Below are positions 4,420 to 63,986 of a stretch of 64,000 bases of DNA, piece after piece. The stretch covers positions 2,068,571-2,132,570 of the forward strand of contig CP166621.1 of the NCBI GenBank assembly GCA_041937185.1. Direction: 5' to 3'. Positions within the stretch are counted from its first letter, which is position 1; every line of letters starts with the position of its first letter. Both the position numbers and the translations under genes were made by a program. The DNA is from Leptolyngbya sp. BL-A-14. Its GTDB lineage: Bacteria > Cyanobacteriota > Cyanobacteriia > Leptolyngbyales > Leptolyngbyaceae. Under the pieces are notes generated by a model. That model was not told where the DNA came from. It saw only the letters and a list, made by a program, of their open reading frames with translations, and did no database searches.

Positions 4420-5292
4420 ATGGAAACCAAACAGCTAGGTAAAACAGGCATCACAGTGAGCGCGATCGGCTTGGGTGGTATGCCAATGTCGTTAAGCAGC
4501 CGTCCGCCAGAGGCACAGGCGATCGCTACAATTCACCGTGCTTTGGACTTAGGAGTCACGCTAATCGATACTGCCGACTCCTACTGCAAAGATGAGTCTG
4601 ACAAGCACCATAATGAGCGCTTAATTCACAAAGCACTTCAGGAGTACGACAAAGACACAACTAACGTCATGATTGCCACAAAGGGCGGCTTGATGCGTCC
4701 TGACGGTTCATGGACACGTAACGGTGATCCTGAGCACCTGCGAGAAACGATCCATACCAGCTTTGAGGCTCTAGGTGGTGATCAACCGATCGGGCTTTGG
4801 CAGTATCACGCCCCCGATCCCAACTACTCCATTGAAGCGTCACTCAAACCAGCGAGAGAAGCCGTTGTCAATGGGCTAATTCGCTTTGTGGGCGTCTCTA
4901 ACTTTTCAGTAGAGCAAATTAAGCGTGCTCGTGATGTGGTCGATATCGCGTCTGTGCAGAACCAATACAATCCCTGGCACCGTGGTCCCGAAACAGATGG
5001 AGTACTGGAATATTGCGATCGCGAAGGGTTAACGTTCTTCCCGTGGAGTCCCTTAGGTGGCAGTCGGCGGTTTAGCCAGATCAATGAGATCGAGGCGATC
5101 GGGCAACTGGCTCGATCAAAGGGCGTTTCAGTTTATGCCATCGTACTGGCGTGGCTGCGGGCAAAATCGGCCCAAGTGATACCGATTCCCGGAGCCAGCA
5201 AACCAGAAAGTATCGAAGATTCGGTTACAGCCGCATCGATCAATCTTTCACAAGCAGAGGTAGAACAGATCGACAAAGCAACGGCTGATTGA
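4420..5292 (+). CDS. Aldo/keto reductase family oxidoreductase
   Basis: 290 aa with the family-typical GLGGMPMS...LIDTADSY N-terminus. Confidence 0.85.
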   Translation: METKQLGKTGITVSAIGLGGMPMSLSSRPPEAQAIATIHRALDLGVTLIDTADSYCKDESDKHHNERLIHKALQEYDKDTTNVMIATKGGLMRPDGSWTRNGDPEHLRETIHTSFEALGGDQPIGLWQYHAPDPNYSIEASLKPAREAVVNGLIRFVGVSNFSVEQIKRARDVVDIASVQNQYNPWHRGPETDGVLEYCDREGLTFFPWSPLGGSRRFSQINEIEAIGQLARSKGVSVYAIVLAWLRAKSAQVIPIPGASKPESIEDSVTAASINLSQAEVEQIDKATAD

Positions 5293-5439
5293 AGCCAGTA
5301 GGGCAACGGACGATCGCGATCACTACTTCTCTACCGCACGATCACGCGTGTCCTATTTCACTATCACCTCATCAAATGGGCGATCGGGGCATAGTAGAAA
5401 CATGAAACGCTGATCCAACGTCCGTGTTAAGCGGGCAGG

Positions 5440-6285
5440 ATGGAGGATTTAACGATGTTCAACGCGACCGAGATCCTGACGGGTGCCTTTGTGCAGCAAC
5501 TTAAGGCAGGCTACCGACGTACCTACGGTAACCTCAAAGCCGACTATGCCGATATCATCGCCTGGGCTGGCGGTATGGCGCTAGAAAATATCGCCAACAG
5601 CGATGCGCTCTACCACGACATTGAACACACGATTCTGGTTACGCTAGTTGGGCAAGAAATTTTGCGTGGCAAGCATATTCGTGAAGGGGGTGTCGCTCCC
5701 GAAGACTGGCTGCATTGCGTCATTTCGCTGGTGTGTCATGACATTGGCTACGTTCGGGGCGTATGCCGGGACGATCGTGCTAACCTCTGCGCCACCGGAA
5801 TTGCCGACACCATGATTGAGCTACCGCCGGGTGCCACCGATGCCAGCCTCACGCCGTACCATGTCGATCGGGGCAAGCTGTTCATTGACGAACGCTTTGG
5901 TGGACACCGCTTACTCGATACCGAACTTATCAAGCGCAATATTGAACTCACTCGTTTTCCGGTGCCTGCTGCCGAAGACCATCAGGATACAAGCCACTAC
6001 CCAGGACTGGTGCGGGCGGCAGATCTCATCGGGCAACTCAGCGATCCACGCTACCTGAAGAAAATTGCTGCACTCTTTTACGAATTTGAAGAAACCGGAG
6101 TGAACAAAGCGCTTGGCTACAAAACGCCTGGAGATCTCCGCCAAAGCTACTCGCAGTTCTACTGGAAAGGGGTGTACCCCTACATTCAAGATGCGCTACG
6201 CTACCTGTCTGTGACCCAACAAGGGCAGCAGATTACAGCGTCCCTGTACTCCAATGTCTTCGTTGTAGAGCATGGAGGGGGATAG
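5440..6285 (+). CDS. HD-domain metal-dependent phosphohydrolase (paralog B)
   Basis: About 75% identical to 1952-2788 across the full length. Confidence 0.75.
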   Translation: MEDLTMFNATEILTGAFVQQLKAGYRRTYGNLKADYADIIAWAGGMALENIANSDALYHDIEHTILVTLVGQEILRGKHIREGGVAPEDWLHCVISLVCHDIGYVRGVCRDDRANLCATGIADTMIELPPGATDASLTPYHVDRGKLFIDERFGGHRLLDTELIKRNIELTRFPVPAAEDHQDTSHYPGLVRAADLIGQLSDPRYLKKIAALFYEFEETGVNKALGYKTPGDLRQSYSQFYWKGVYPYIQDALRYLSVTQQGQQITASLYSNVFVVEHGGG

Positions 6286-6327
6286 GAAGGCTAAAGGATG
6301 AAGGCTAAAGGCTAAAGGGGCAATGGG

Positions 6328-7347
6328 ATGGGACGATCGGTTCTACGCGTGCTTTTGGCGATCGTGCTAATCGTCGTAACTAGCTGTCATTTATCGTCCT
6401 CTCAGCCACCTCCTGTCTCTTCCCCCTATACCCCAAACCCTACACTCCAAACCCTTCCCCAACCTATTCCCACCAAACAGCCAGTCCCTCAAATAGACCC
6501 GGATCGCCTTTTCCAACATGTTGAAGCATTAAACTTTGAGCGGTATCAGGCAAGCGATCGCGATCGTGCCCGTCGTTATCTGGTCAGAACGCTCGTTAAA
6601 TTTGGTTGGAAACCGCAGCTACGAGCGTTTGAGGGTGGCGTGAATGTCTTCGCTCAGCGTTCCGGTACAAATGCCAGTGCAGGAGCAATTTTGGTCGATG
6701 CTCACTACGACACGGTAAAAGGGTCGCCCGGTGCGGATGACAATGGCAGCTCGATCGCGGCGACGCTTGAAATTGCTCGTTTACTGGGTTCTCGTTCAAC
6801 GCAACGCCCGTTGTGGATTGCGTTTTTTGATCGGGAAGAGGCGGGTTTAGTCGGCAGTCTCAATTTCACAGCGCGTCCAGAGAATTTGGTGAACCTTGCT
6901 GGTGTGGTCAATTTGGAGATGATGGGCTACGCCTGCTACACGTCTGGCTGTCAGAAATACCCTGAAGGCTTGCCTGTAAAACCACTGAGTGATCGGGGCG
7001 ATTTTCTAGGAGTCATCGGTGATCAGGAGCACTTGCCGCTGCTGAATGCGTTTCAGGTGCCTGCATCGACCCCATCCGCCTTGAACCTGCCAGCCATCAT
7101 CACAGTGTCCATTCCCTTTAAAGGTTTACTGACTCCAGACGTGTTAAGGAGCGACCATGCGCCGTTTTGGGCAAAGAACATTGGGGCCGTGATGGTGGGC
7201 GACACAGCCAACTTCCGCAACCCCCACTATCATCAGCCAAGCGATACGCCAGAAACCCTCGATCGCGCCTTCCTTGCTGGAGCCACTCAACGAGTCGTAA
7301 ATGCCATCAGTACCTTGTTAGATAGTCAAGAGGCATTGAGTAACTAA
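6328..7347 (+). CDS. M28-family Zn peptidase with Pro-rich N-terminal linker
   Basis: HYDTV...GADDNGS...EEAGLVGS motifs. Signal peptide then a Pro-rich stretch. Confidence 0.8.
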   Translation: MGRSVLRVLLAIVLIVVTSCHLSSSQPPPVSSPYTPNPTLQTLPQPIPTKQPVPQIDPDRLFQHVEALNFERYQASDRDRARRYLVRTLVKFGWKPQLRAFEGGVNVFAQRSGTNASAGAILVDAHYDTVKGSPGADDNGSSIAATLEIARLLGSRSTQRPLWIAFFDREEAGLVGSLNFTARPENLVNLAGVVNLEMMGYACYTSGCQKYPEGLPVKPLSDRGDFLGVIGDQEHLPLLNAFQVPASTPSALNLPAIITVSIPFKGLLTPDVLRSDHAPFWAKNIGAVMVGDTANFRNPHYHQPSDTPETLDRAFLAGATQRVVNAISTLLDSQEALSN

Positions 7348-34094: not shown

Positions 34095-35294
34095 ATGACG
34101 GATGCCAACGCCGCGATCGACGCTCGCATTAGCCAAACCAATCAGCGGTTGAAAGCAGCCCAGATGGGCTTTCAGATTGAGCGACGAGGGCAAAAGCTGG
34201 GACTACGAGGAATGTTGCCGCCGCGTCCAGGCAGTTTACGCTTGAAACCGACTCAACAGCGTTTAAGCCTTGGTTTACCCGCCACACCTGCGGGCTTAAA
34301 GCAGGCAGAACAAACGATCAAAATCATCGCTGCCCAACTAATTCAAAACACCTTTGACTGGCGTAACTATGCTGATGGGGCTGGCTGGGGACGACTCGAC
34401 CAGATGGGGTTGGCACAACAAGCGGAAGCCTTTAAGCACCAGTTTTTTGCCGATTCAACCCGCGTCAGTCATCCTGCTTCTGCCAAAACGACCTGGGACG
34501 GGGCCTATGCTCCCTATTTGCGGAAACTGGAGGCGATCGCGCAAGCAAACCCCCAACTCAGTTTTGTCGAAGCCATTTACGCCACGGTGCGAGCAACAGA
34601 AGACCATTCGCGTAGCCGACAGCTTTGCTGTACGACGCTTGGTGCGTTTGCCGATTTCTTAAAGGTAGAATTGCCGATCGACCTCAAAACCTTTTGGGGA
34701 CGCTACGGTGTCAGTCAGGCGCAAGCCCGCGAACTACCGTCTGATGAGTTAATCGTTTCAACCTGGGCGACGATCCCCAATCCACACTGGCAGTTTGTTT
34801 ATGCCGTGATGGCAACCTATGGCTTGAGAAATCATGAAGTTTTCTTCTGTGATTACTCAGCACTCCTGCAAGGCAACCCTGAAGCAACCATTCGCGTTCT
34901 CAACACAACAAAAACGGGTATGCATGATGTCTGGCCGTTCTATCCTGAATGGGTAGAGCAGTTTAATTTGCGATCGCTCCAGCTACCCACCATCCAAACC
35001 GATCTCAGTCAGACCACACTGCAACGAGTTGGTCAGCGCGTCACCTCCCAATTCCGCCGCTATGGCTTGCCCTTCTCACCGTACAATTTGCGTCATGCGT
35101 GGGCTATCCGCACCATCCACTTTGGCTTACCCGATACGGTGGCTGCCCGGATGATGGGCCACTCCGTTGCCGTCCACAATCGCACGTATCATCAATGGCT
35201 GACTCACCGTGACCAGCAGCAGGCAGTGAAGACCGCGTTGAGTCGGAGTCAGTTGGCTGCACCGGGAGGGGGAGGGATGAGGGATGGGGGATGA
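34095..35294 (+). CDS. Tyrosine-type recombinase/integrase family protein with atypical N-terminal domain
   Basis: Catalytic motifs GLRNHE, LRHAWAIR, MGHS and RTYHQW (R, H-x-x-R, H, Y). Confidence 0.6.
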   Translation: MTDANAAIDARISQTNQRLKAAQMGFQIERRGQKLGLRGMLPPRPGSLRLKPTQQRLSLGLPATPAGLKQAEQTIKIIAAQLIQNTFDWRNYADGAGWGRLDQMGLAQQAEAFKHQFFADSTRVSHPASAKTTWDGAYAPYLRKLEAIAQANPQLSFVEAIYATVRATEDHSRSRQLCCTTLGAFADFLKVELPIDLKTFWGRYGVSQAQARELPSDELIVSTWATIPNPHWQFVYAVMATYGLRNHEVFFCDYSALLQGNPEATIRVLNTTKTGMHDVWPFYPEWVEQFNLRSLQLPTIQTDLSQTTLQRVGQRVTSQFRRYGLPFSPYNLRHAWAIRTIHFGLPDTVAARMMGHSVAVHNRTYHQWLTHRDQQQAVKTALSRSQLAAPGGGGMRDGG

Positions 35295-35450
35295 GGGATG
35301 AGGGCGGAAGGCTAAAGGCTAAAGGTAACTTCTGGCTCCTGACCCCTGACTTCTAACTCATGGCTCCCCTTGCCTCCCCTGCTCCCCTTGCCTCCCTTGC
35401 TTCCCCTGCTCCCTCCGCTTCCCCTGCCTTTGCCCCCTCACCCCGCACCT
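35281..35450. repeat. Purine-tract then pyrimidine-tract heptamer repeat block
   Basis: gggatgggggatgagggatgagggcggaaggctaaaggctaaagg ... tccccttgcctcccctgctccccttgcctcccttgc read directly. Confidence 0.75.
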
Positions 35451-40735: not shown

Positions 40736-41016
40736 ATGAGACCAAAAGGCTTGATAAGGCTCAATTCAATGACTGGAAAGGGGGCGACCAAGCTGAATCT
40801 GAATTATGCAGAAAGATTCTAGCTAGCCAAGCCAAATGCCGCGATAAATGAGGTGAATTCAAAGTGGCTGTAGAGTTTGCAATTTTCCAATGATTTAGTC
40901 TTGCGATCGTGCGCTCCAGTTTATCTTGTGATAGTACAGCGCAACGCACCAATTGATTGCCAATCATACAATTTATGTCTCCAATCGATTTACTAGAATT
41001 GCGTCAAAGTTGAAGG

Positions 41017-41047
41017 GCATCTAACAGGCTTAGATGCCCTTCTCTAG
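41017..41047. terminator. Perfect 12-bp stem hairpin in the spacer after the Coq4 C-terminal fragment and the THUMP gene
   Basis: gaagggcatcta-acaggc-ttagatgcccttc. No clear U-run. Confidence 0.35.
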
Positions 41048-41589
41048 TCTGATTAAGGGAAGAAGATGTCCTCAACAGTTGACTAGTAGGCGGTTCACCG
41101 TGAGGATAGGGCGATCGCATCCCGCAGATAAGGACGGCTATACCAACTCCAGAGTCCTTCGGTCACTGGCACAATGTTTAATTCGGCACGCCACTCGTCG
41201 ATAGGGCGTTCCAGTCCTTCTTCAAACTTCGCCGGAAACAAGGGTTTCGCTTGCCGTGCAATGCGGATGCCTTGAGAAACCAGGTCAAACTTATATTCCA
41301 GAGGAGAATCGATGCCTTCCGGTGCTTGATTAGCCATGAACGCTAGCAACGAACCAACCAAATCAATGAACGTGAATGCGGGATAGCCAATCTGCCCAAC
41401 CGTCACTGAAATCACTCCCAGTTCACCGTAGTCGTCAAAACTAAAGCCCGTCAAAATATGATGCAGATCATGAGTTTTGCGAACGCGATGGGTAATGTAA
41501 TCGACATCTGATTCAATTTTTCGGAGGCGATAGAACCGTGGATCATAGTTCATGGCACTGAGCACCTGAGCATACAGCGTGTTGCATAA

Positions 41590-42024
41590 CTAATTGGTAC
41601 AGTAACAGCAGTGAGCAAAGTAGTTTCGCAAGTCCCTACTCGAACAGAGGCTAACGCCCAGTTGTAATAGCTTTGTAATGGTTTCTACACTCTTCGGTAC
41701 AAACCGCCGGATAAACGACTTCAACTGCCACCACAGGTGTTCAATCGGGTTGAACTCAGGTGAGTACGGCGATAAGTAAACAACCCTGGCTCCGACCGCT
41801 TCGATCATCTGCTCTATCCCTTCAACTTTATGGGCTTTGAGGTTATCCATCACCACCACTGCCCCCGGCCACAACTTCGGGACGAGACGTGCGGACACAA
41901 ACTGTTTGAAGTCTTCTCCTGTCATCGATTTGCCCAACGTTTGCATCGCCAGGATGGCGGTTTGACTAATCGCCCCAACGACGGTGATCCGGCGACCGCG
42001 GTAGAAGGGTTTGAGGTCATACAC
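41590..42024 (-). CDS. IS630 transposase, C-terminal DDE_3 part (frameshifted relative to the HTH part)
   Basis: VVVMDNLKAHK...YLSPYSPEFNPIEHLW DDE_3 motifs. Confidence 0.75.
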   Translation of the reverse strand: MYDLKPFYRGRRITVVGAISQTAILAMQTLGKSMTGEDFKQFVSARLVPKLWPGAVVVMDNLKAHKVEGIEQMIEAVGARVVYLSPYSPEFNPIEHLWWQLKSFIRRFVPKSVETITKLLQLGVSLCSSRDLRNYFAHCCYCTN

Positions 42025-42152
42025 TCGTTGTCCCTTACAACTTCTTCCCGGGTCTGCTTAACCCTTGCAGCACTCCCATCTCGTCCAGGAAGACTAAATT
42101 TTCTGGCAGAACCGTACTGATCGTCCGCCAGTAGGCAACTCGTTGTGCTTGC

Positions 42153-42533
42153 TTATCCGCTGCTGCGGCTTGAGCACTGCGACAGGTTTTTTTTAACCGT
42201 TAACTGCTGTTTTTGCAAGAATCGGCACATCGTACTTTCACTCACACTCACCCCGGTTTTGTCTTGCCAATACTCGCAATACTCTGCCAATGTATAGTCC
42301 TGGTGTGTCTCAACCATCTCTGCGATGTTCTGTTCATAGCCTGCCAGTTGGCTTGCCTTACCGCCTGTTGCTGGAGCAGGCTTCAGTGTTCCTGTGGCTT
42401 GCTTGCGCTTGAGCAACGACTGAACCGTATTTTTGCTGACCTGAAATCTCTCTGCTACCTTCCGAATCGAAGTATTGCCTGTCTCATAGGTACTGATAAT
42501 TTTTTCGCGTAGGTCGAGGGAGTAGGGCTTCAT
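42153..42533 (-). CDS. IS630 transposase, N-terminal HTH part
   Basis: MKPYSLDLREKII...IRKVAERFQVSKNTV helix-turn-helix. Separate frame from the DDE part. Confidence 0.7.
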   Translation of the reverse strand: MKPYSLDLREKIISTYETGNTSIRKVAERFQVSKNTVQSLLKRKQATGTLKPAPATGGKASQLAGYEQNIAEMVETHQDYTLAEYCEYWQDKTGVSVSESTMCRFLQKQQLTVKKNLSQCSSRSSG

Positions 42534-42967
42534 AGCTATCCAAGTGGAAGACTCTCTCTATTGTGCCAAACCGTCGTGCAAAACGCTGTAAGTCCAACCC
42601 AATGAGCCTTCCGGCAGCTTCAGCAAGGTTTCCAGATCAAACTCTGGACCCATATAACGCTCATCAACTAATTGTGCTGAGTCTGGATTTTGACGGACAA
42701 TCTGCAAACACCTTTTCATTGGCCCACTATCAGTCAAAGCATCCTCAATATCGAAGATGTTTTGCGTGTCAACTCTCCCCCCAGCAACCATGTCAACTAA
42801 AGACAGCAGTTTATCAACATTTTCAGGGGTTGCTAGTTCGTTGATATATTTGAATCCCATGATTGTTACCTCGCGGTGCGTTGTTTGTTTTCGACAACTG
42901 CATCCTACGGTGACTCCACAGGTAAGCAACAGGGTCTTTTTTTGATATAGGTCAAATTTGATCTTGA

Positions 42968-43594
42968 TCAAATTTCCTGGGCTAGATGACGGCGGCGTTG
43001 CTGATTTCGATATCTAGCGCGGATGCGACTGAGGGTTTCTTGAGTTATTCCCAAATAGGAGGCAAGATGTCCTAGCTTAACGCGATCGAGAATATCAGGG
43101 TGTCTCTGAACGAGATTCTCATATCGTTCAAAGGCGGTTTGAGTTTTCATTAAAAAAGCCCGTTCTTCTAATTCAATATAATAACTTTCAGTCAATAATC
43201 GACCAATCTTATTCCAGTCAGGGTCGTTTTCATACAGATATTGCAGTCCATCATAACTTGTTACAAAAAACTTGCAGTTTGAAACTAATTCAACACTTTG
43301 TTTGCTTGGTTTTCTCGAAATAAAGCTATAAAGTGAGCATATAAAATCATCTTCAAATGCAAACCTTGATGTAATTTCTTTGTCTTCAACATAGTAGAAT
43401 TGCCGAACTACCCCTTCAATCAGGAAATATAATTGGCTCGATATTTCACCTTCCTTCAGGAGATAATGGTCTTTTGGGAACTCCTGGTACTTGAAAAATT
43501 TACGAACATTTTCCTGCTGTTGTTTACTGAGTATGACTGCTCGATCTAAAACTTGAAATAGCTTTTCGTATTGATCAATTTCTTGCTGCATCAA
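42968..43594 (-). CDS. Crp/Fnr-family transcriptional regulator in a low-GC (~37%) single-gene island
   Basis: cNMP-binding domain plus C-terminal HTH (LGHLASYLGITQETLSRIR). Composition is very different from the neighbouring DNA. Confidence 0.85.
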   Translation of the reverse strand: MMQQEIDQYEKLFQVLDRAVILSKQQQENVRKFFKYQEFPKDHYLLKEGEISSQLYFLIEGVVRQFYYVEDKEITSRFAFEDDFICSLYSFISRKPSKQSVELVSNCKFFVTSYDGLQYLYENDPDWNKIGRLLTESYYIELEERAFLMKTQTAFERYENLVQRHPDILDRVKLGHLASYLGITQETLSRIRARYRNQQRRRHLAQEI

Positions 43595-43885
43595 ATCATG
43601 TATGCACGTGTGACTATAATCACTCTAAATTCTAAGCAAAATTTTGACAGTACTATAGAATCTGCTATACATTTCTAGTTGAATTTTGTGGGTTATGGAA
43701 TCCTGTATAAACACTGGGACCAATGACACTAACAGCACAGGCTAACAACCCGGCTGGATTGGACTGTTGGGAGATCTTGGTTGTGCCACAAAAGTTATTT
43801 ACAGCCGTTCAGCTAGAACGTTAGGCGGGCTTGATTGGCGATATTGGGGATGTACAGAGTACTGAACCACTGCGGGATAGCGAGG

Positions 43886-50100: not shown

Positions 50101-50240
50101 TAGAAAGGGGGAAGGAGTGAGAGAGCGGGTGGGTGAGAGAGTGGGTGGGTGAGAGAGTGAGAGCACACATCATTCCATCACCTCGTTATCCCCTCACCCC
50201 ATCACCGCATCATCTCATCATCCCGTTATCTCAACACCTC
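50101..50240. repeat. Purine-tract then pyrimidine-tract repeat block (GTGAGAGA / GGTGATGG units)
   Basis: gggggaaggagtgagagagcgggtgggtgagagagtgggtgggtgagagagtgagag ... catcacctcgttatcccctcaccccatcaccgcatcatctcatcatccc. Confidence 0.75.
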
Positions 50241-52275
50241 ACGACCAGGCTGTTACTGCTGGTTCTAGAAGGTTGGCAATCGCAGGATCTTGGTACGTCC
50301 CATTGCGATGCGTGATTCTAACGGCATTCGCCAATTGCTCAATCGGTGCCCCTTTTAAGTAGATGGCATCGGCTCCTGCCGCGATCGCCTCTGAGACGAT
50401 GGATAGTTGTCCAGGGCTAACCAGCACCAAAATTTTGGATGGGATGACGTAAGAATTTGCTTGAGCCTTACGCGCCATCCGAATGAACTTAGCCAGATCC
50501 ATATCGGGTAAAGTCCCATCAACCACTGCAACATCAACATCAATGGATTCCAACAGCACAATCCCTGTTTCAGCATTGGTGGCTTCGCTGGCAACTTCAA
50601 TGCCATCTTGGGCGCGCAAATCTATCCGCAGCTTAATACGTGTCTGTTCATCAGCCTCAATGAGAGCAACCTGAATCACATCATGAGGTTTCTGTACTTT
50701 GATGTAGCCACTGGCTTCTGATGGTTCATTCGGCCCCCCGCAAGCTGAAATGGTGCCAAGGGAATCAACATCAGCTGAAACCTGCTTCAGTTGAGCCATT
50801 TGCTCGGCAGACAGAATTCTGGATTCATCAAAGCCGAACTCAATTTCGGTATGTAGCCCTTTCTGTTTGACGCGGCTCAAATTGTAGAAGCGCTTGTTGA
50901 GTGTCGTTTTGACAAAAGCCCAGAGGCAGCCCAGGAGGTAACGCCGCTTAAACGGATCGGGCTCAAACCAATATTCTAAAAACTTCCAGGAATAGAAACG
51001 AGCATAGTTCCGCAACACGCCTTTAAGTACACCCTCCCGCGTCATATTGTCGGGTTTGATGATGGGCGTCACAAAGTTGTAATGGGAATAATCGCGGATT
51101 TCAACTTTATCCTGTAAATCCTGAAATAGTTCTGAAAACGGCCAGGGGGTGTACATGTTCCAGTTGGTCATGTCCGCTTTCCAGTCGCGCGCCATCCGGT
51201 AGGTTTCCTCGATGGTTTCTGGCGTTTCACTGGGTAAGCCCATAATGAACTGGACTTCTGCCAGGATGCCATTGTCACGCAGAAGCTCTACAGCGCGCTT
51301 GTTGTCAGCGATCGTCGTTTCTTTGCGGAACAGATTGAGATTTAACTGCGCGGCCGCTTCTGTGCCGAGAGAAACATGCACCAATCCCGCTTTGCGATAC
51401 AGAGGCAGCTCCTTTTCATCCCGCAAAATATCGGTTACGCGGGTGTTAATGCCCCAATGTACCCCCAGGTTGCGCTCAACAAGCTCATGGCACAGTGCCA
51501 CAAAGCGCGATTTGTTGATCGTGGGTTCTTCATCGGCCAGGATGAAAAAGCCGACCTTATGCTCCTTCACCAACTGCTCGATTTCATCCACAAAGTTTTG
51601 GGGCGATCGAGAGCGATATTTGCGCCAGAACTTCCATTGCGAACAAAAGCGGCAGCGGAAGGGACACCCACGCGAGTAATTGGGCACAGCCACCCTCGTA
51701 TTGAGGGGCGTGTACTTGTAGGTGTTCCAATCCAGCAGCGACCAATCTGGAGTGAGCGTGTTCAGATCTTTGATCGGTGGGTGGGCTGGAGTCGCGACGA
51801 TTTTGCCATCTTCCAGGAAGGCCAATCCCAGGATTTGGCGACGATCGCGTGCGTCGGTGCCAGCTGCGATCGCCCGCAGCAAATTGACCGTGATCTCCTC
51901 ACCTTCACCCCGAATGATGTAATCCACCCAGGGAGCTTCACTTAACACCTCTCGATACATATAAGTGGGATGCACACCACCCATGATGGTTTTGGCGTTT
52001 GGGCAAACGTCTTTGACCAGCTTCAATGTTTTCTGAGACTGATAAATCATGGGCGTAATTGCCGTCGCCAACACAACATCCGGTTGATGCTCGCGAATCA
52101 TGTCTGCCAGTGCAGCATCGGCAATATAGTTAGTCATCGCGTCAATGAACCGAACGTCATTGAAGCCTGCGGTCTTTAAAGCACCGCCTACATAAGGCAC
52201 CCAACTAGGCGGCCAGTTACCAGCGATTTCTGCACCACCGGAGTGATAGTTGGGTTGAATCATTAAAATACGCAT
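50239..52275 (-). CDS. B12-binding radical-SAM enzyme (BchE-like anaerobic Mg-protoporphyrin IX monomethyl ester cyclase family) with fused C-terminal receiver(REC)-like domain
   Basis: N-terminal B12-binding region. CPFRCRFC radical-SAM cysteine triad. C-terminal ~130 aa carries REC motifs (VVDGTLPDMD, LVLVS, YLKGAP). Confidence 0.75.
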   Translation of the reverse strand: MRILMIQPNYHSGGAEIAGNWPPSWVPYVGGALKTAGFNDVRFIDAMTNYIADAALADMIREHQPDVVLATAITPMIYQSQKTLKLVKDVCPNAKTIMGGVHPTYMYREVLSEAPWVDYIIRGEGEEITVNLLRAIAAGTDARDRRQILGLAFLEDGKIVATPAHPPIKDLNTLTPDWSLLDWNTYKYTPLNTRVAVPNYSRGCPFRCRFCSQWKFWRKYRSRSPQNFVDEIEQLVKEHKVGFFILADEEPTINKSRFVALCHELVERNLGVHWGINTRVTDILRDEKELPLYRKAGLVHVSLGTEAAAQLNLNLFRKETTIADNKRAVELLRDNGILAEVQFIMGLPSETPETIEETYRMARDWKADMTNWNMYTPWPFSELFQDLQDKVEIRDYSHYNFVTPIIKPDNMTREGVLKGVLRNYARFYSWKFLEYWFEPDPFKRRYLLGCLWAFVKTTLNKRFYNLSRVKQKGLHTEIEFGFDESRILSAEQMAQLKQVSADVDSLGTISACGGPNEPSEASGYIKVQKPHDVIQVALIEADEQTRIKLRIDLRAQDGIEVASEATNAETGIVLLESIDVDVAVVDGTLPDMDLAKFIRMARKAQANSYVIPSKILVLVSPGQLSIVSEAIAAGADAIYLKGAPIEQLANAVRITHRNGTYQDPAIANLLEPAVTAWS

Positions 52276-52309
52276 GGCTTACTTTCCTTTCTCAACCAAT
52301 GAATATTCA

Positions 52310-52440
52310 TTTGGAGATGGATGATGGGAAGGGGTGATGATGGAATGATGAGGTGATGAGAGGGGGAGATGATGGGATAGCGGGATCTCCTACGCTCTTA
52401 CGCTTCCTCACCCACTTACCCAGCCTTCCACCCTGCCACC
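52310..52440. repeat. Purine-tract then pyrimidine-tract repeat block (GATGATGG units)
   Basis: gagatggatgatgggaaggggtgatgatggaatgatgaggtgatgagagggggagatgatggg ... cgcttcctcacccacttacccagccttccaccctgccacccacgc. Confidence 0.75.
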
Positions 52441-52445
52441 CACGC

Positions 52446-53843
52446 TTATACCGCTCTTGAGAAGTTGGATGTTGTGTTTTGCTTGAAGTAAGCATCAAAC
52501 GCCGAAGCAATATTGCGAATCAGCAACCGCCCGGCAGGCGTCACTTCAATGTGATTCGGGGAATGCCTGATTAACCCATCCACTTCTAAGCGACGCAGTT
52601 GGAATTTTTCAGAGGCAAAATACGTTTCAAAATCCAGATCAAAGCCAAGGTGGTATTTTTCTTCCACATCCTGAGGAGAAAGCTGAAATTGACACATCAA
52701 TTCCATAATGACCGTGCGTCGAATGATGTCATCCTGGCTTAAGGTAACGCCTCGCTCGATCGGCAATTCATTGGCATCGATCGCTCGATAAAAATCTTTC
52801 AGGCGCTTATGATTTTGCACATAAACATCGTTCAGCATGCTAATCGAGGTCACACCAAAGCCGATCAAATCGGATTCTGGTTTCGTCGTATAACCCTGAA
52901 AGTTCCGGTGTAGCAGTCCTTCACGCTGGGCAATCGACAATTCATCCTCAGGTTTGGCAAAGTGATCCATGCCAATGTACTGATAGCCATGCTGGGTTAA
53001 CTCATCGATCGCCATTTGCAGAATCTTGAGTTTCTCAGCGGCTGAAGGTAAGGCCTCCTGGGGAATTCGCTTTTGGACTGGTTTGAGCCACGGCACATAG
53101 GCAAAGTTGAAGACGGCAATGCGATCGGGATCGAGTTGAAGCGTTTTGCGAATGGTGTCTCGGAACGTTTCTAGCGTTTGATAGGGAAGTCCATAAATCA
53201 AATCCACATTCACGCTTTCAAAGCCTGCATCCCGGCTCCACCGCATGACATCAAACAGCATGGATTCTGGCTGTACTCGATTGACCGCTTCCTGCACCTT
53301 CAAGTTAAAGTCCTGGATGCCAAAGCTAATCCGGTTAAAGCCCAGATTCTTTAACGAGGCAAGATAGTGTTGATCTAATGCTTTGGGATTGACCTCAATC
53401 GAAATTTCAGCGTTCGGATCAAAGCGAAAATGCTCGTGAATCGCTGTCCATAGCGTTTCAACCTGCTTCAGCGAAAGATAGTTCGGCGTGCCTCCGCCCC
53501 AGTGCAGTTGGTGAACGGTGCGATCGCCATCAATTAATTGAGCCATCTGCTGAATATGCCTGATCAGATAACTCAGGTAATGCTCAGCCAGTTCCTTACG
53601 CTGCGTAATGACCGTATTGCAACCGCAGAAATAACAGGCGCTGTCACAAAACGGAATATGGCAGTAGAGCGACAGAGGTGTTTTTTTATAATTACTGACC
53701 GCGATCGCCGCTCTAAAATCAATGTCTTCAAACTCTGGTTTTAACTCGGTCGCTGGGGGGTAGCTGGTGTAGCGCGGTACGGGCTGGTCGTATTGTTGCA
53801 GGAGTTGAGCGTCAAACTGCACAGTGGGCAACAGATGTTGCAT
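52446..53843 (-). CDS. hemN: Oxygen-independent coproporphyrinogen III oxidase
   Basis: Radical-SAM CxxxCxxC (CDSACYFCGC). HemN length and C-terminal domain. Confidence 0.9.
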   Translation of the reverse strand: MQHLLPTVQFDAQLLQQYDQPVPRYTSYPPATELKPEFEDIDFRAAIAVSNYKKTPLSLYCHIPFCDSACYFCGCNTVITQRKELAEHYLSYLIRHIQQMAQLIDGDRTVHQLHWGGGTPNYLSLKQVETLWTAIHEHFRFDPNAEISIEVNPKALDQHYLASLKNLGFNRISFGIQDFNLKVQEAVNRVQPESMLFDVMRWSRDAGFESVNVDLIYGLPYQTLETFRDTIRKTLQLDPDRIAVFNFAYVPWLKPVQKRIPQEALPSAAEKLKILQMAIDELTQHGYQYIGMDHFAKPEDELSIAQREGLLHRNFQGYTTKPESDLIGFGVTSISMLNDVYVQNHKRLKDFYRAIDANELPIERGVTLSQDDIIRRTVIMELMCQFQLSPQDVEEKYHLGFDLDFETYFASEKFQLRRLEVDGLIRHSPNHIEVTPAGRLLIRNIASAFDAYFKQNTTSNFSRAV

Positions 53844-63389: not shown

Positions 63390-63986
63390 TTATACCAGTG
63401 CTTTGTAGTTTTTGACGCGATCGCCATCGGCAACGCCCAAAATTTTCGCCAGCCACGGGGGAGGAGAGGTCGCGATCGCGTGTTGCAATTCGCTTAAAAT
63501 CTCTCTAGCGGGACCTCCTGCCTCTTTTTTGATGGGATAGATGCCAGCCTGCACCACTTTCCCTGCTGCGGGGCCGCCAATCGCCACAATATAGAGCACT
63601 GGACAATCTCGAATTAAGCTGACTCGAAACGCATTTTTGTCATCAGATAAATCAGCTTCGATCGCCGATCGAATATCAATCAGCCTGATCTCATCCACGG
63701 AGAGTTGATAGATCAGGTAGCGTAAGCAAGAGCCAAAATGTCCGTCCAGCATTTCTCGATTGTTAGAGGCCACCGCAACTCGAATGGAATTGGGCAAATC
63801 TCCATCCTGGTAAGCTTCAAGGGGTGGTAACTGATCGATTTCATCCAGTTCTCCCCACAAAATGCGAACGGCTTTCTTGAAGATGGCAATATCCGCGGCG
63901 TCAGCATCTTCACCATGCTCCTCTCCATCCAACTCGTAGGTATGTCCAAGAGCGGTTTTCAGATTAGTGACAGTGATTTTACTCAA
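63390..63986 (-). CDS. NifX/NafY-family FeMo-cofactor-binding protein
   Basis: C-terminal dinitrogenase FeMo-cofactor-binding fold motifs (VAVASNNREMLDGHFGSC...IVAIGGPAAGKV) after an N-terminal extension, as in NafY. Confidence 0.6.
   Translation of the reverse strand: MSKITVTNLKTALGHTYELDGEEHGEDADAADIAIFKKAVRILWGELDEIDQLPPLEAYQDGDLPNSIRVAVASNNREMLDGHFGSCLRYLIYQLSVDEIRLIDIRSAIEADLSDDKNAFRVSLIRDCPVLYIVAIGGPAAGKVVQAGIYPIKKEAGGPAREILSELQHAIATSPPPWLAKILGVADGDRVKNYKALV

Follow-up and report, generated by a model that had tools for sequence, protein, structure and literature searches.

An IS630-family insertion sequence with a frame-split transposase inside a Coq4-family gene of Leptolyngbya sp. 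BL-A-14

An insertion sequence within a Coq4-family gene

In the cyanobacterium Leptolyngbya sp. BL-A-14, a gene of the Coq4 family is interrupted by an insertion sequence (IS) of the IS630 family whose transposase is spread over several reading frames. We analyzed both genes within a 64,000-nucleotide stretch of contig CP166621.1, hereinafter the window, whose positions are used throughout. The element is 1014 bp long and occupies 41575-42588 on the minus strand between two copies of the dinucleotide TA, in the order TA (41573-41574), CAGCGTGTTGCAT...GTGCAAAACGCTG (41575-42588), TA (42589-42590). Homology to the elements at four other loci (L002, L004, L005, and L083; 88-100% nucleotide identity) ends exactly at these boundaries, and TA lies outside both ends of each of these copies, which are all the other copies examined. 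The terminal inverted repeats are CAGCGTTTTGCACGACGGTTTGGCACAATAG at the 5' end of the transposase (42559-42588, minus strand) and CAGCGTGTTGCATAACTAATTGGTACAGTAA at its 3' end (41575-41604, plus strand). Both open with CAGCGT, are imperfect, with 22 of the first 30 positions equal, and are kept in the relatives. An earlier note, made from the sequence alone, had placed an IS630 element with a TA duplication at the same coordinates, which proved exact to the base; the imperfect repeats of about 27 bp that it described were likewise recovered, over about 30 bp. A 16-nucleotide degenerate pattern of the ends, with at most two mismatches allowed, matched just these two ends in the 64-kb window, and neither further copies nor derivatives resembling miniature inverted-repeat transposable elements were detected in the window (end-pattern scan; no long repeats).

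In silico excision of 41575-42590, the check that had been proposed for this locus, yielded an uninterrupted open reading frame (ORF) of 249 aa on the minus strand (MGFKYINE...LPEGSLGWTYAQVLSAMNYDPRFYRL...THDLHHILTG...SSR). The restored protein matched the Pfam Coq4 profile PF05019 (E = 1.8e-16; 60.5 bits, gathering score 22.9) over profile positions 47-219 of 221, and had 270 homologues at E <= 1e-10. Among the 120 homologues listed, lengths ranged from 199 to 259 aa, with most at 245-259 aa and covering at least 98% of the query; thus, the homologues align across the junction. These results corroborate the earlier proposal that the flanking ORF fragments together form one Coq4-like protein. 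The restored protein also matched two solved Coq4-like structures, 3msq (putative ubiquinone biosynthesis protein; E = 4e-23) and 6e12 (Alr8543 of Nostoc; E = 3e-15), and shares with them the Coq4 metal-binding motif HDxxH-x11-E; the BL-A-14 gene differs from both in being interrupted. Cyanobacteria are not known to synthesize ubiquinone.

The 5' fragment of the Coq4-family gene (42591-42860, minus strand) consists of 90 codons, after which the split Tyr codon 91 runs into the TA. Accordingly read, its ORF comprises 91 Coq4 residues followed by nine residues from the inverted repeat (SVLHDGLAQ*). The 3' fragment (41095-41572, minus strand) retains the metal-binding motif (HDLHH-ILTGFSFDDYG-E) and the stop codon, and is without a proper start. 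From its sequence, the insertion reads as a textbook case, with the 2-bp target duplication falling within the Tyr-91 codon, and the Coq4-family gene is inactivated by the IS.

The best homologue of the restored Coq4 protein comes from Anabaenopsis circularis NIES-21 (96% identity), and its DNA (L081) provides a natural empty site. At about 91% nucleotide identity, L081 positions 5236-6272 correspond to window positions 43624-42589, and positions 6271-7023 to 41574-40829; the two alignments overlap by exactly one TA. NIES-21 reads ...GGTTGGACTTA/TGCTC..., whereas the window reads ...GGACTTA, the element, and TATGCTC.... The single TA of NIES-21 identifies the copies on the Coq4 3' side (41573-41574) and 5' side (42589-42590) as the target-site duplication.

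Similarity to NIES-21 is limited to 40829-43624 (about 1.8 kb without the IS), and the flanks are not syntenic. The shared block encodes a Crp-like cyclic nucleoside monophosphate-binding regulator, Coq4, and the start of a pterin-4a-carbinolamine dehydratase gene, and its GC content outside the IS is 0.35-0.47, compared with 0.51-0.55 in the flanks. The lower GC content, together with an identity of about 91% between strains of Leptolyngbya and of Nostocales, points to horizontal acquisition of the block, between cyanobacterial orders. The dehydratase remnant (40764-40967, minus strand) adjoins the disrupted Coq4-family gene. Its first ~30 residues match a 101-aa NIES-21 protein, after which KLYSHFEFTSFIAAFG continues in another frame to an early stop; judged by this alignment, the gene is a frameshifted, truncated pseudogene. 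Overall, the NIES-21-like block seems to be in decay.

A transposase in three reading frames

For the family assignment, we used a natural, uninterrupted transposase of 314 aa (P0262), which equals the window protein with both of its indels repaired. P0262 scored 166.8 bits against the NCBIfam IS630 equivalog model NF033545 (cut-off 100). On the conceptual 314-aa window protein, with both frame breaks repaired, Pfam HTH_Tnp_IS630 (27.8 bits, cut-off 21.3) covered residues 4-120, and DDE_3 (E = 1e-28; 100.5 bits, cut-off 28.6) covered residues 147-277. By profile, TA duplication, inverted repeats, and size, the element is classified in the IS630 family, in agreement with the earlier note. A PDB sequence search with the transposase returned no match, and the plasmid collection gave only short, weak partial matches (~72-81%) to IS630-family transposase genes.

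The transposase coding sequence spans bases 56-999 of the element and, translated on the minus strand, falls into three pieces in three frames. orfA (42153-42533, minus strand; 126 aa) encodes the helix-turn-helix (HTH) DNA-binding part, as indicated by the HTH_Tnp_IS630 match on the repaired protein. It is followed by a middle segment, TCRSAQ...LVFLDEMGVLQGLSRP (42050-42187, minus strand), which is in the +1 frame relative to orfA and contains the putative first catalytic D, and by a C-terminal DDE segment, GRSCKGQRVYD...VVVMDNLKAH...NPIEHLW...CCYCTN* (41590-42048, minus strand), in the third frame. The DDE_3 match spans the latter two. The D of LVFLDEMG, the D of VVVMDNL, and the E of NPIEHLW, picked by inspection of motifs and with 34 residues between the last two, are candidates for the catalytic triad. 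The earlier note had described a transposase split into an HTH and a DDE ORF in different frames; the split stands, with three frames in use rather than two. A single -1 frameshift joining the HTH and DDE ORFs, to which their frames by themselves would point, was rejected, because an intermediate segment lies between them in a frame of its own.

In Leptolyngbya sp. BL-A-14, four or more loci have the exact orfA protein in their annotation, which also lists several variants of orfB; the IS is therefore multi-copy in this genome. At three sibling loci, an intact orfB of 177 aa (P0258, MSTVLPENLVFLDEMGVLQGLSRPRGRSCKG...) is present. At the DNA level, the closest relatives found were elements 88-89% identical to the IS in metagenome-assembled genomes (MAGs) of Leptolyngbyaceae. 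In Leptolyngbya sp. IPPAS B-1204, an annotated protein of 363 aa (P0134) begins in a host ORF that resembles a membrane protein, crosses the inverted repeat of the IS, and continues into orfA, so that, in some insertions, host translation can enter the DNA-binding part of the transposase in frame.

The A8 tract at the first frame break

orfA and the middle segment meet at a slippage-prone run of eight A residues (A8; T8 on the plus strand) at 42187-42194 on the minus strand, where the frame shifts by +1. A scan for relatives of the transposase, with one genome per species, gave 80 cyanobacterial loci, in 65 of which the junction could be placed and was printed. Almost all of these 65 relatives have a homologous poly-A tract, mostly A8-A10, at the HTH/DDE boundary. 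The part downstream of it is shifted by -1 in 37 loci, by +1 in 18, and not at all in 10. Among the Microcoleus relatives, the tract varies from A7 to A10 and all three frame relations occur.

Within the close clade (80-100% nucleotide identity), A8 with the +1 relation is found in the window copy and in L002, L003, L062, L085, L086, L087, and L089, and A7 with the two parts in frame in L083, L084, and L088 (8 vs 3); L004 and L005 have an interrupted tract, AAACAAAA. The interrupted tract lies at ~1836-1850 in these two loci (MAGs SM1_4_3 and RM1_406_9), in which the coding sequence is otherwise intact. The A8 state is probably real, given that it is consistent in the polished copies and in assemblies with short-read-like contig names.

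The ratio of nonsynonymous to synonymous substitution rates (dN/dS) was 0.03-0.19 in all three segments, at dS of 0.34-1.43 (Nei-Gojobori method, against L002, L003, L004, and L062), and 0.08-0.15 in the middle segment against the A8 relatives. Because the ratios are low in all segments, the part downstream of the A8 break has been maintained as a protein, under purifying selection, while the split arrangement persisted.

The second frame break and the assembly

The second break lies at CCCGGG (42047-42052, minus strand), where alignments show a loss of 2 bp compared with CCCAGGGG in relatives and siblings. In 60 of the 65 relatives, the middle and C-terminal segments share a frame, and the AG of CCCAGGGG is missing in the window copy alone when it is compared with L002, L004, L005, L083, and L084, all of which have one frame at this point. 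As assembled, the middle frame stops nine codons past the break (GLSRPGKKL*) and so does not reach the second D or the E of the candidate triad; hence, the window copy cannot make a transposase even with slippage at A8. The earlier note had left the choice between a programmed frameshift and decay; there appears to be one of each, the A8 break being family-wide and the second break, which the note did not include, a private 2-bp loss, due to either decay or a Nanopore assembly error.

Four alleles of this site occur in BL-A-14, those of the sibling copies being read from annotated protein sequences, as look-ups of the exact window orfA and P0169 proteins returned no indexed gene: intact CCCAGGGG at the three loci encoding P0258, CCCGGGG (minus A) at two loci (P0257), CCCAGGG (minus G) at one plasmid locus (P0169), and CCCGGG (minus AG) in the window copy. 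The sibling orfB proteins are otherwise identical apart from this site. Such variation could reflect either a mutational hot spot or a consensus error that this sequence context provokes in repeats. The BL-A-14 assembly was built from R9.4.1 Flongle reads called with Guppy 6.4.2, using Flye and Medaka, and was polished with Illumina reads by Polypolish; the project's reads are SRR32600066-72 (PMC12341861). CCWGG occurs at 169 sites in the window, and apart from the IS and the dehydratase remnant no gene there shows signs of breakage.

Comparison with known IS630 elements

Cyanobacterial members of IS630, which belongs to the IS630/Tc1/mariner superfamily, include ISY100 of Synechocystis PCC 6803 and IS895 of Anabaena PCC 7120. 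The BL-A-14 element shares with the family a size of ~1 kb, terminal inverted repeats, TA duplication, and a transposase composed of HTH and DDE_3 parts; it differs in that the transposase, a single ORF in the family, is split at a poly-A tract. IS630 has been listed among the IS families that use frameshifting (Atkins et al. 2016, PMC5009743). In Nostoc PCC 7120, IS elements that differ solely in the length of a poly(A) tract, from 8 to 10 residues, were interpreted as a case of productive transcriptional slippage (Baranov et al. 2005, PMC1088944). Like these elements of Nostoc PCC 7120 and Deinococcus radiodurans (PMC1088944), the BL-A-14 element has a poly-A tract at the orfA/orfB junction that varies in length among otherwise identical copies; unlike them, its clade is mostly A8 with the +1 relation, which would call for one A fewer or two more, and slippage is here deduced from sequence. 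For ISFtu1 of Francisella tularensis, another IS630 member, programmed ribosomal frameshifting at a poly-A site has been predicted (PMC4412822); similarly, its transposase is encoded by two overlapping ORFs that an A-rich slippery site connects. There, the two consecutive overlapping ORFs are read as linked by ribosomal frameshifting, whereas the window clade shows a +1 relation on A8. An IS630 element of Roseiflexus also depends on recoding for its transposase, namely transcriptional realignment on T5C5 with an RNA hairpin as the stimulator (work cited in PMC5009743 and PMC6211511); its slippery motif is different and an upstream hairpin is needed, whereas no significant structure was predicted in the BL-A-14 IS.

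Proposed mechanism and alternatives

We consider it highly probable that the locus reflects transposition of an IS630 element into a TA of a Coq4-family gene, that the A8 break is a slippage-type recoding site of the known kind, located in the hypervariable tract of such elements, and that the window copy, as assembled, has in addition lost 2 bp. Under this interpretation, the element would have inserted at the TA inside codon 91 (Tyr), duplicating the TA and inactivating the gene. As is typical of this cyanobacterial IS630 group, translation of orfA would end shortly past the poly-A tract, with the catalytic part in another frame, here +1, and a full-length transposase would require slippage on the A tract. 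Candidate routes are omission of one A or addition of two by RNA polymerase, ribosomal shifting by +1, and heritable alteration of the tract to A7. The window copy could be moved in trans by siblings with an intact catalytic ORF, which is plausible because it retains both ends and orfB is intact at three sibling loci. The IS has the same orientation as the Coq4-family gene, so that read-through from the Coq4 promoter could transcribe orfA; a scan of 41400-42800 detected no sigma-70-like promoter.

Several observations weigh against this interpretation. No significant RNA structure was predicted around the A tract (minimum free energy -38.8 kcal/mol compared with a shuffle mean of -39.2 kcal/mol, z = 0.10), although a stimulatory structure is dispensable for slippage on long A runs. 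The +1 relation needs one A fewer or two more, which is less usual than the -1 relation of the majority of relatives; L004 and L005 combine the +1 relation with an interrupted tract, for which slippage is no explanation; and the argument for slippage at A8 is drawn from conservation. The interrupted tract and the lack of a stimulatory structure, like the A7 in-frame alleles of L083, L084, and L088 and the range of A7-A10 among close Microcoleus relatives, would also suit an account in which the A8 break is plain inactivation of a copy or a lineage, with activity stemming from rare A7 masters through heritable changes of the tract. We regard that account as unlikely, considering that A8 with the +1 relation predominates (8 vs 3) over independent genomes at dS of 0.3-1.4, that the downstream segments have dN/dS of about 0.1, and that identical IS copies differing in A8-A10 alone favor productive slippage (PMC1088944). 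It is somewhat more conceivable, if still doubtful, that the Leptolyngbya IS630 clade stably keeps a +1 catalytic ORF behind A8 and combines an unusual form of recoding with A7/A8 as a heritable on/off switch. Recoding in this clade would then involve loss of one A or gain of two by RNA polymerase, or a +1 ribosomal shift on AAA-AAA-AAC, unlike the usual -1. The stable +1 relation behind A8 is the sole mildly unusual point of the element.

The origin of the assembly from Nanopore R9.4.1 Flongle reads, even if Illumina-polished, and the locus L083 belong among the same adverse points. L083 is a Logan contig from SRR32600071, in the same BioProject; its IS is 100% identical to the window copy save that it has A7 and that AG is present, and it encodes one uninterrupted ORF of 314 aa (P0262). 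Whether the 2-bp loss is an artefact is, in our estimate, about evenly balanced: the window copy may truly carry CCCAGGGG like the majority, with CCCGGG as an assembly error in a repeat. It is very unlikely that a 1014-bp element mutated four times independently within a single 3-bp spot, and the site holds CCAGG beside runs of G and C. Flye and Medaka were applied to low-yield R9.4.1 Flongle reads, short-read polishing is weakest within multi-copy repeats, and the site is intact in L083, which was assembled from reads of the same project. The A tract is the only other point at which L083 and the window copy differ. Conversely, the unique genes of the window look intact, Polypolish is built to correct repeats if all copies are identical, so that leftover heterogeneity could be real, and extra, real-looking frameshifts occur in 5 of the 65 related copies (~8%). 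The identity of L083 to the window IS apart from A7 and AG, with its single ORF, would extend the same explanation to both breaks, in which case the true element would have A7 and a single 314-aa transposase, and BL-A-14 would use no recoding. This appears improbable, since every orfA annotation in the polished assembly (at least four loci) requires A8, and A8 with the +1 relation recurs in seven elements of other assemblies, whose contig names suggest short-read assemblers. Moreover, the A7 of L083 could itself be an error, given the tendency of raw Nanopore data to under-call long homopolymers. None of the seven unique BL-A-14 proteins that were looked up was present in Logan; for this reason, SRR32600071 may be raw Nanopore data in which A8 was under-called as A7, and we have downgraded L083 as proof of an A7 allele in BL-A-14.

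Other features of the window

A gene named site-specific integrase by NCBI lies at 34095-35294 (plus strand). A direct repeat of 300 nucleotides (1952-2251 and 5455-5754; 74% identity) lies inside two ORFs (278 and 281 aa) that are separated by 3.5 kb and probably represent paralogous genes. Short purine-rich heptamer-like repeats (GGATGAA and AGGCTAA units) were found at 571-635, 6279-6318, and 35272-35325, at or just past the ends of predicted ORFs. An oxygen-independent enzyme cluster on the minus strand (50239-53843 and 63390-63986) includes, by their NCBI names, a BchE-type anaerobic Mg-protoporphyrin cyclase and a HemN-type coproporphyrinogen oxidase. It also has a protein containing dinitrogenase FeMo-cofactor-binding domains. 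The octamer HIP1 (highly iterated palindrome 1), GCGATCGC, is present in 56 copies in the 64 kb, as is typical of cyanobacteria. Scans for tRNA genes and Rfam families across the whole window returned nothing.

Implications

The element is an ordinary member of IS630, from a group of cyanobacterial elements in which expression of the transposase is already known to depend on poly-A tracts, and the disruption of the host gene is ordinary pseudogenization. The significance of the locus beyond annotation is small. In BL-A-14, the Coq4-family gene should be annotated as an IS-disrupted pseudogene, and the IS should be entered as a single element that contains a recoding site, in place of two or three "transposase" genes. 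Where a multi-copy IS has been assembled from Nanopore R9.4.1 reads, individual copies can show indels of their own that resemble decay. For the family, this IS clade offers a compact natural series (A7 in frame, A8 with the +1 relation, and the interrupted tract) of poly-A control of IS630 transposase expression.

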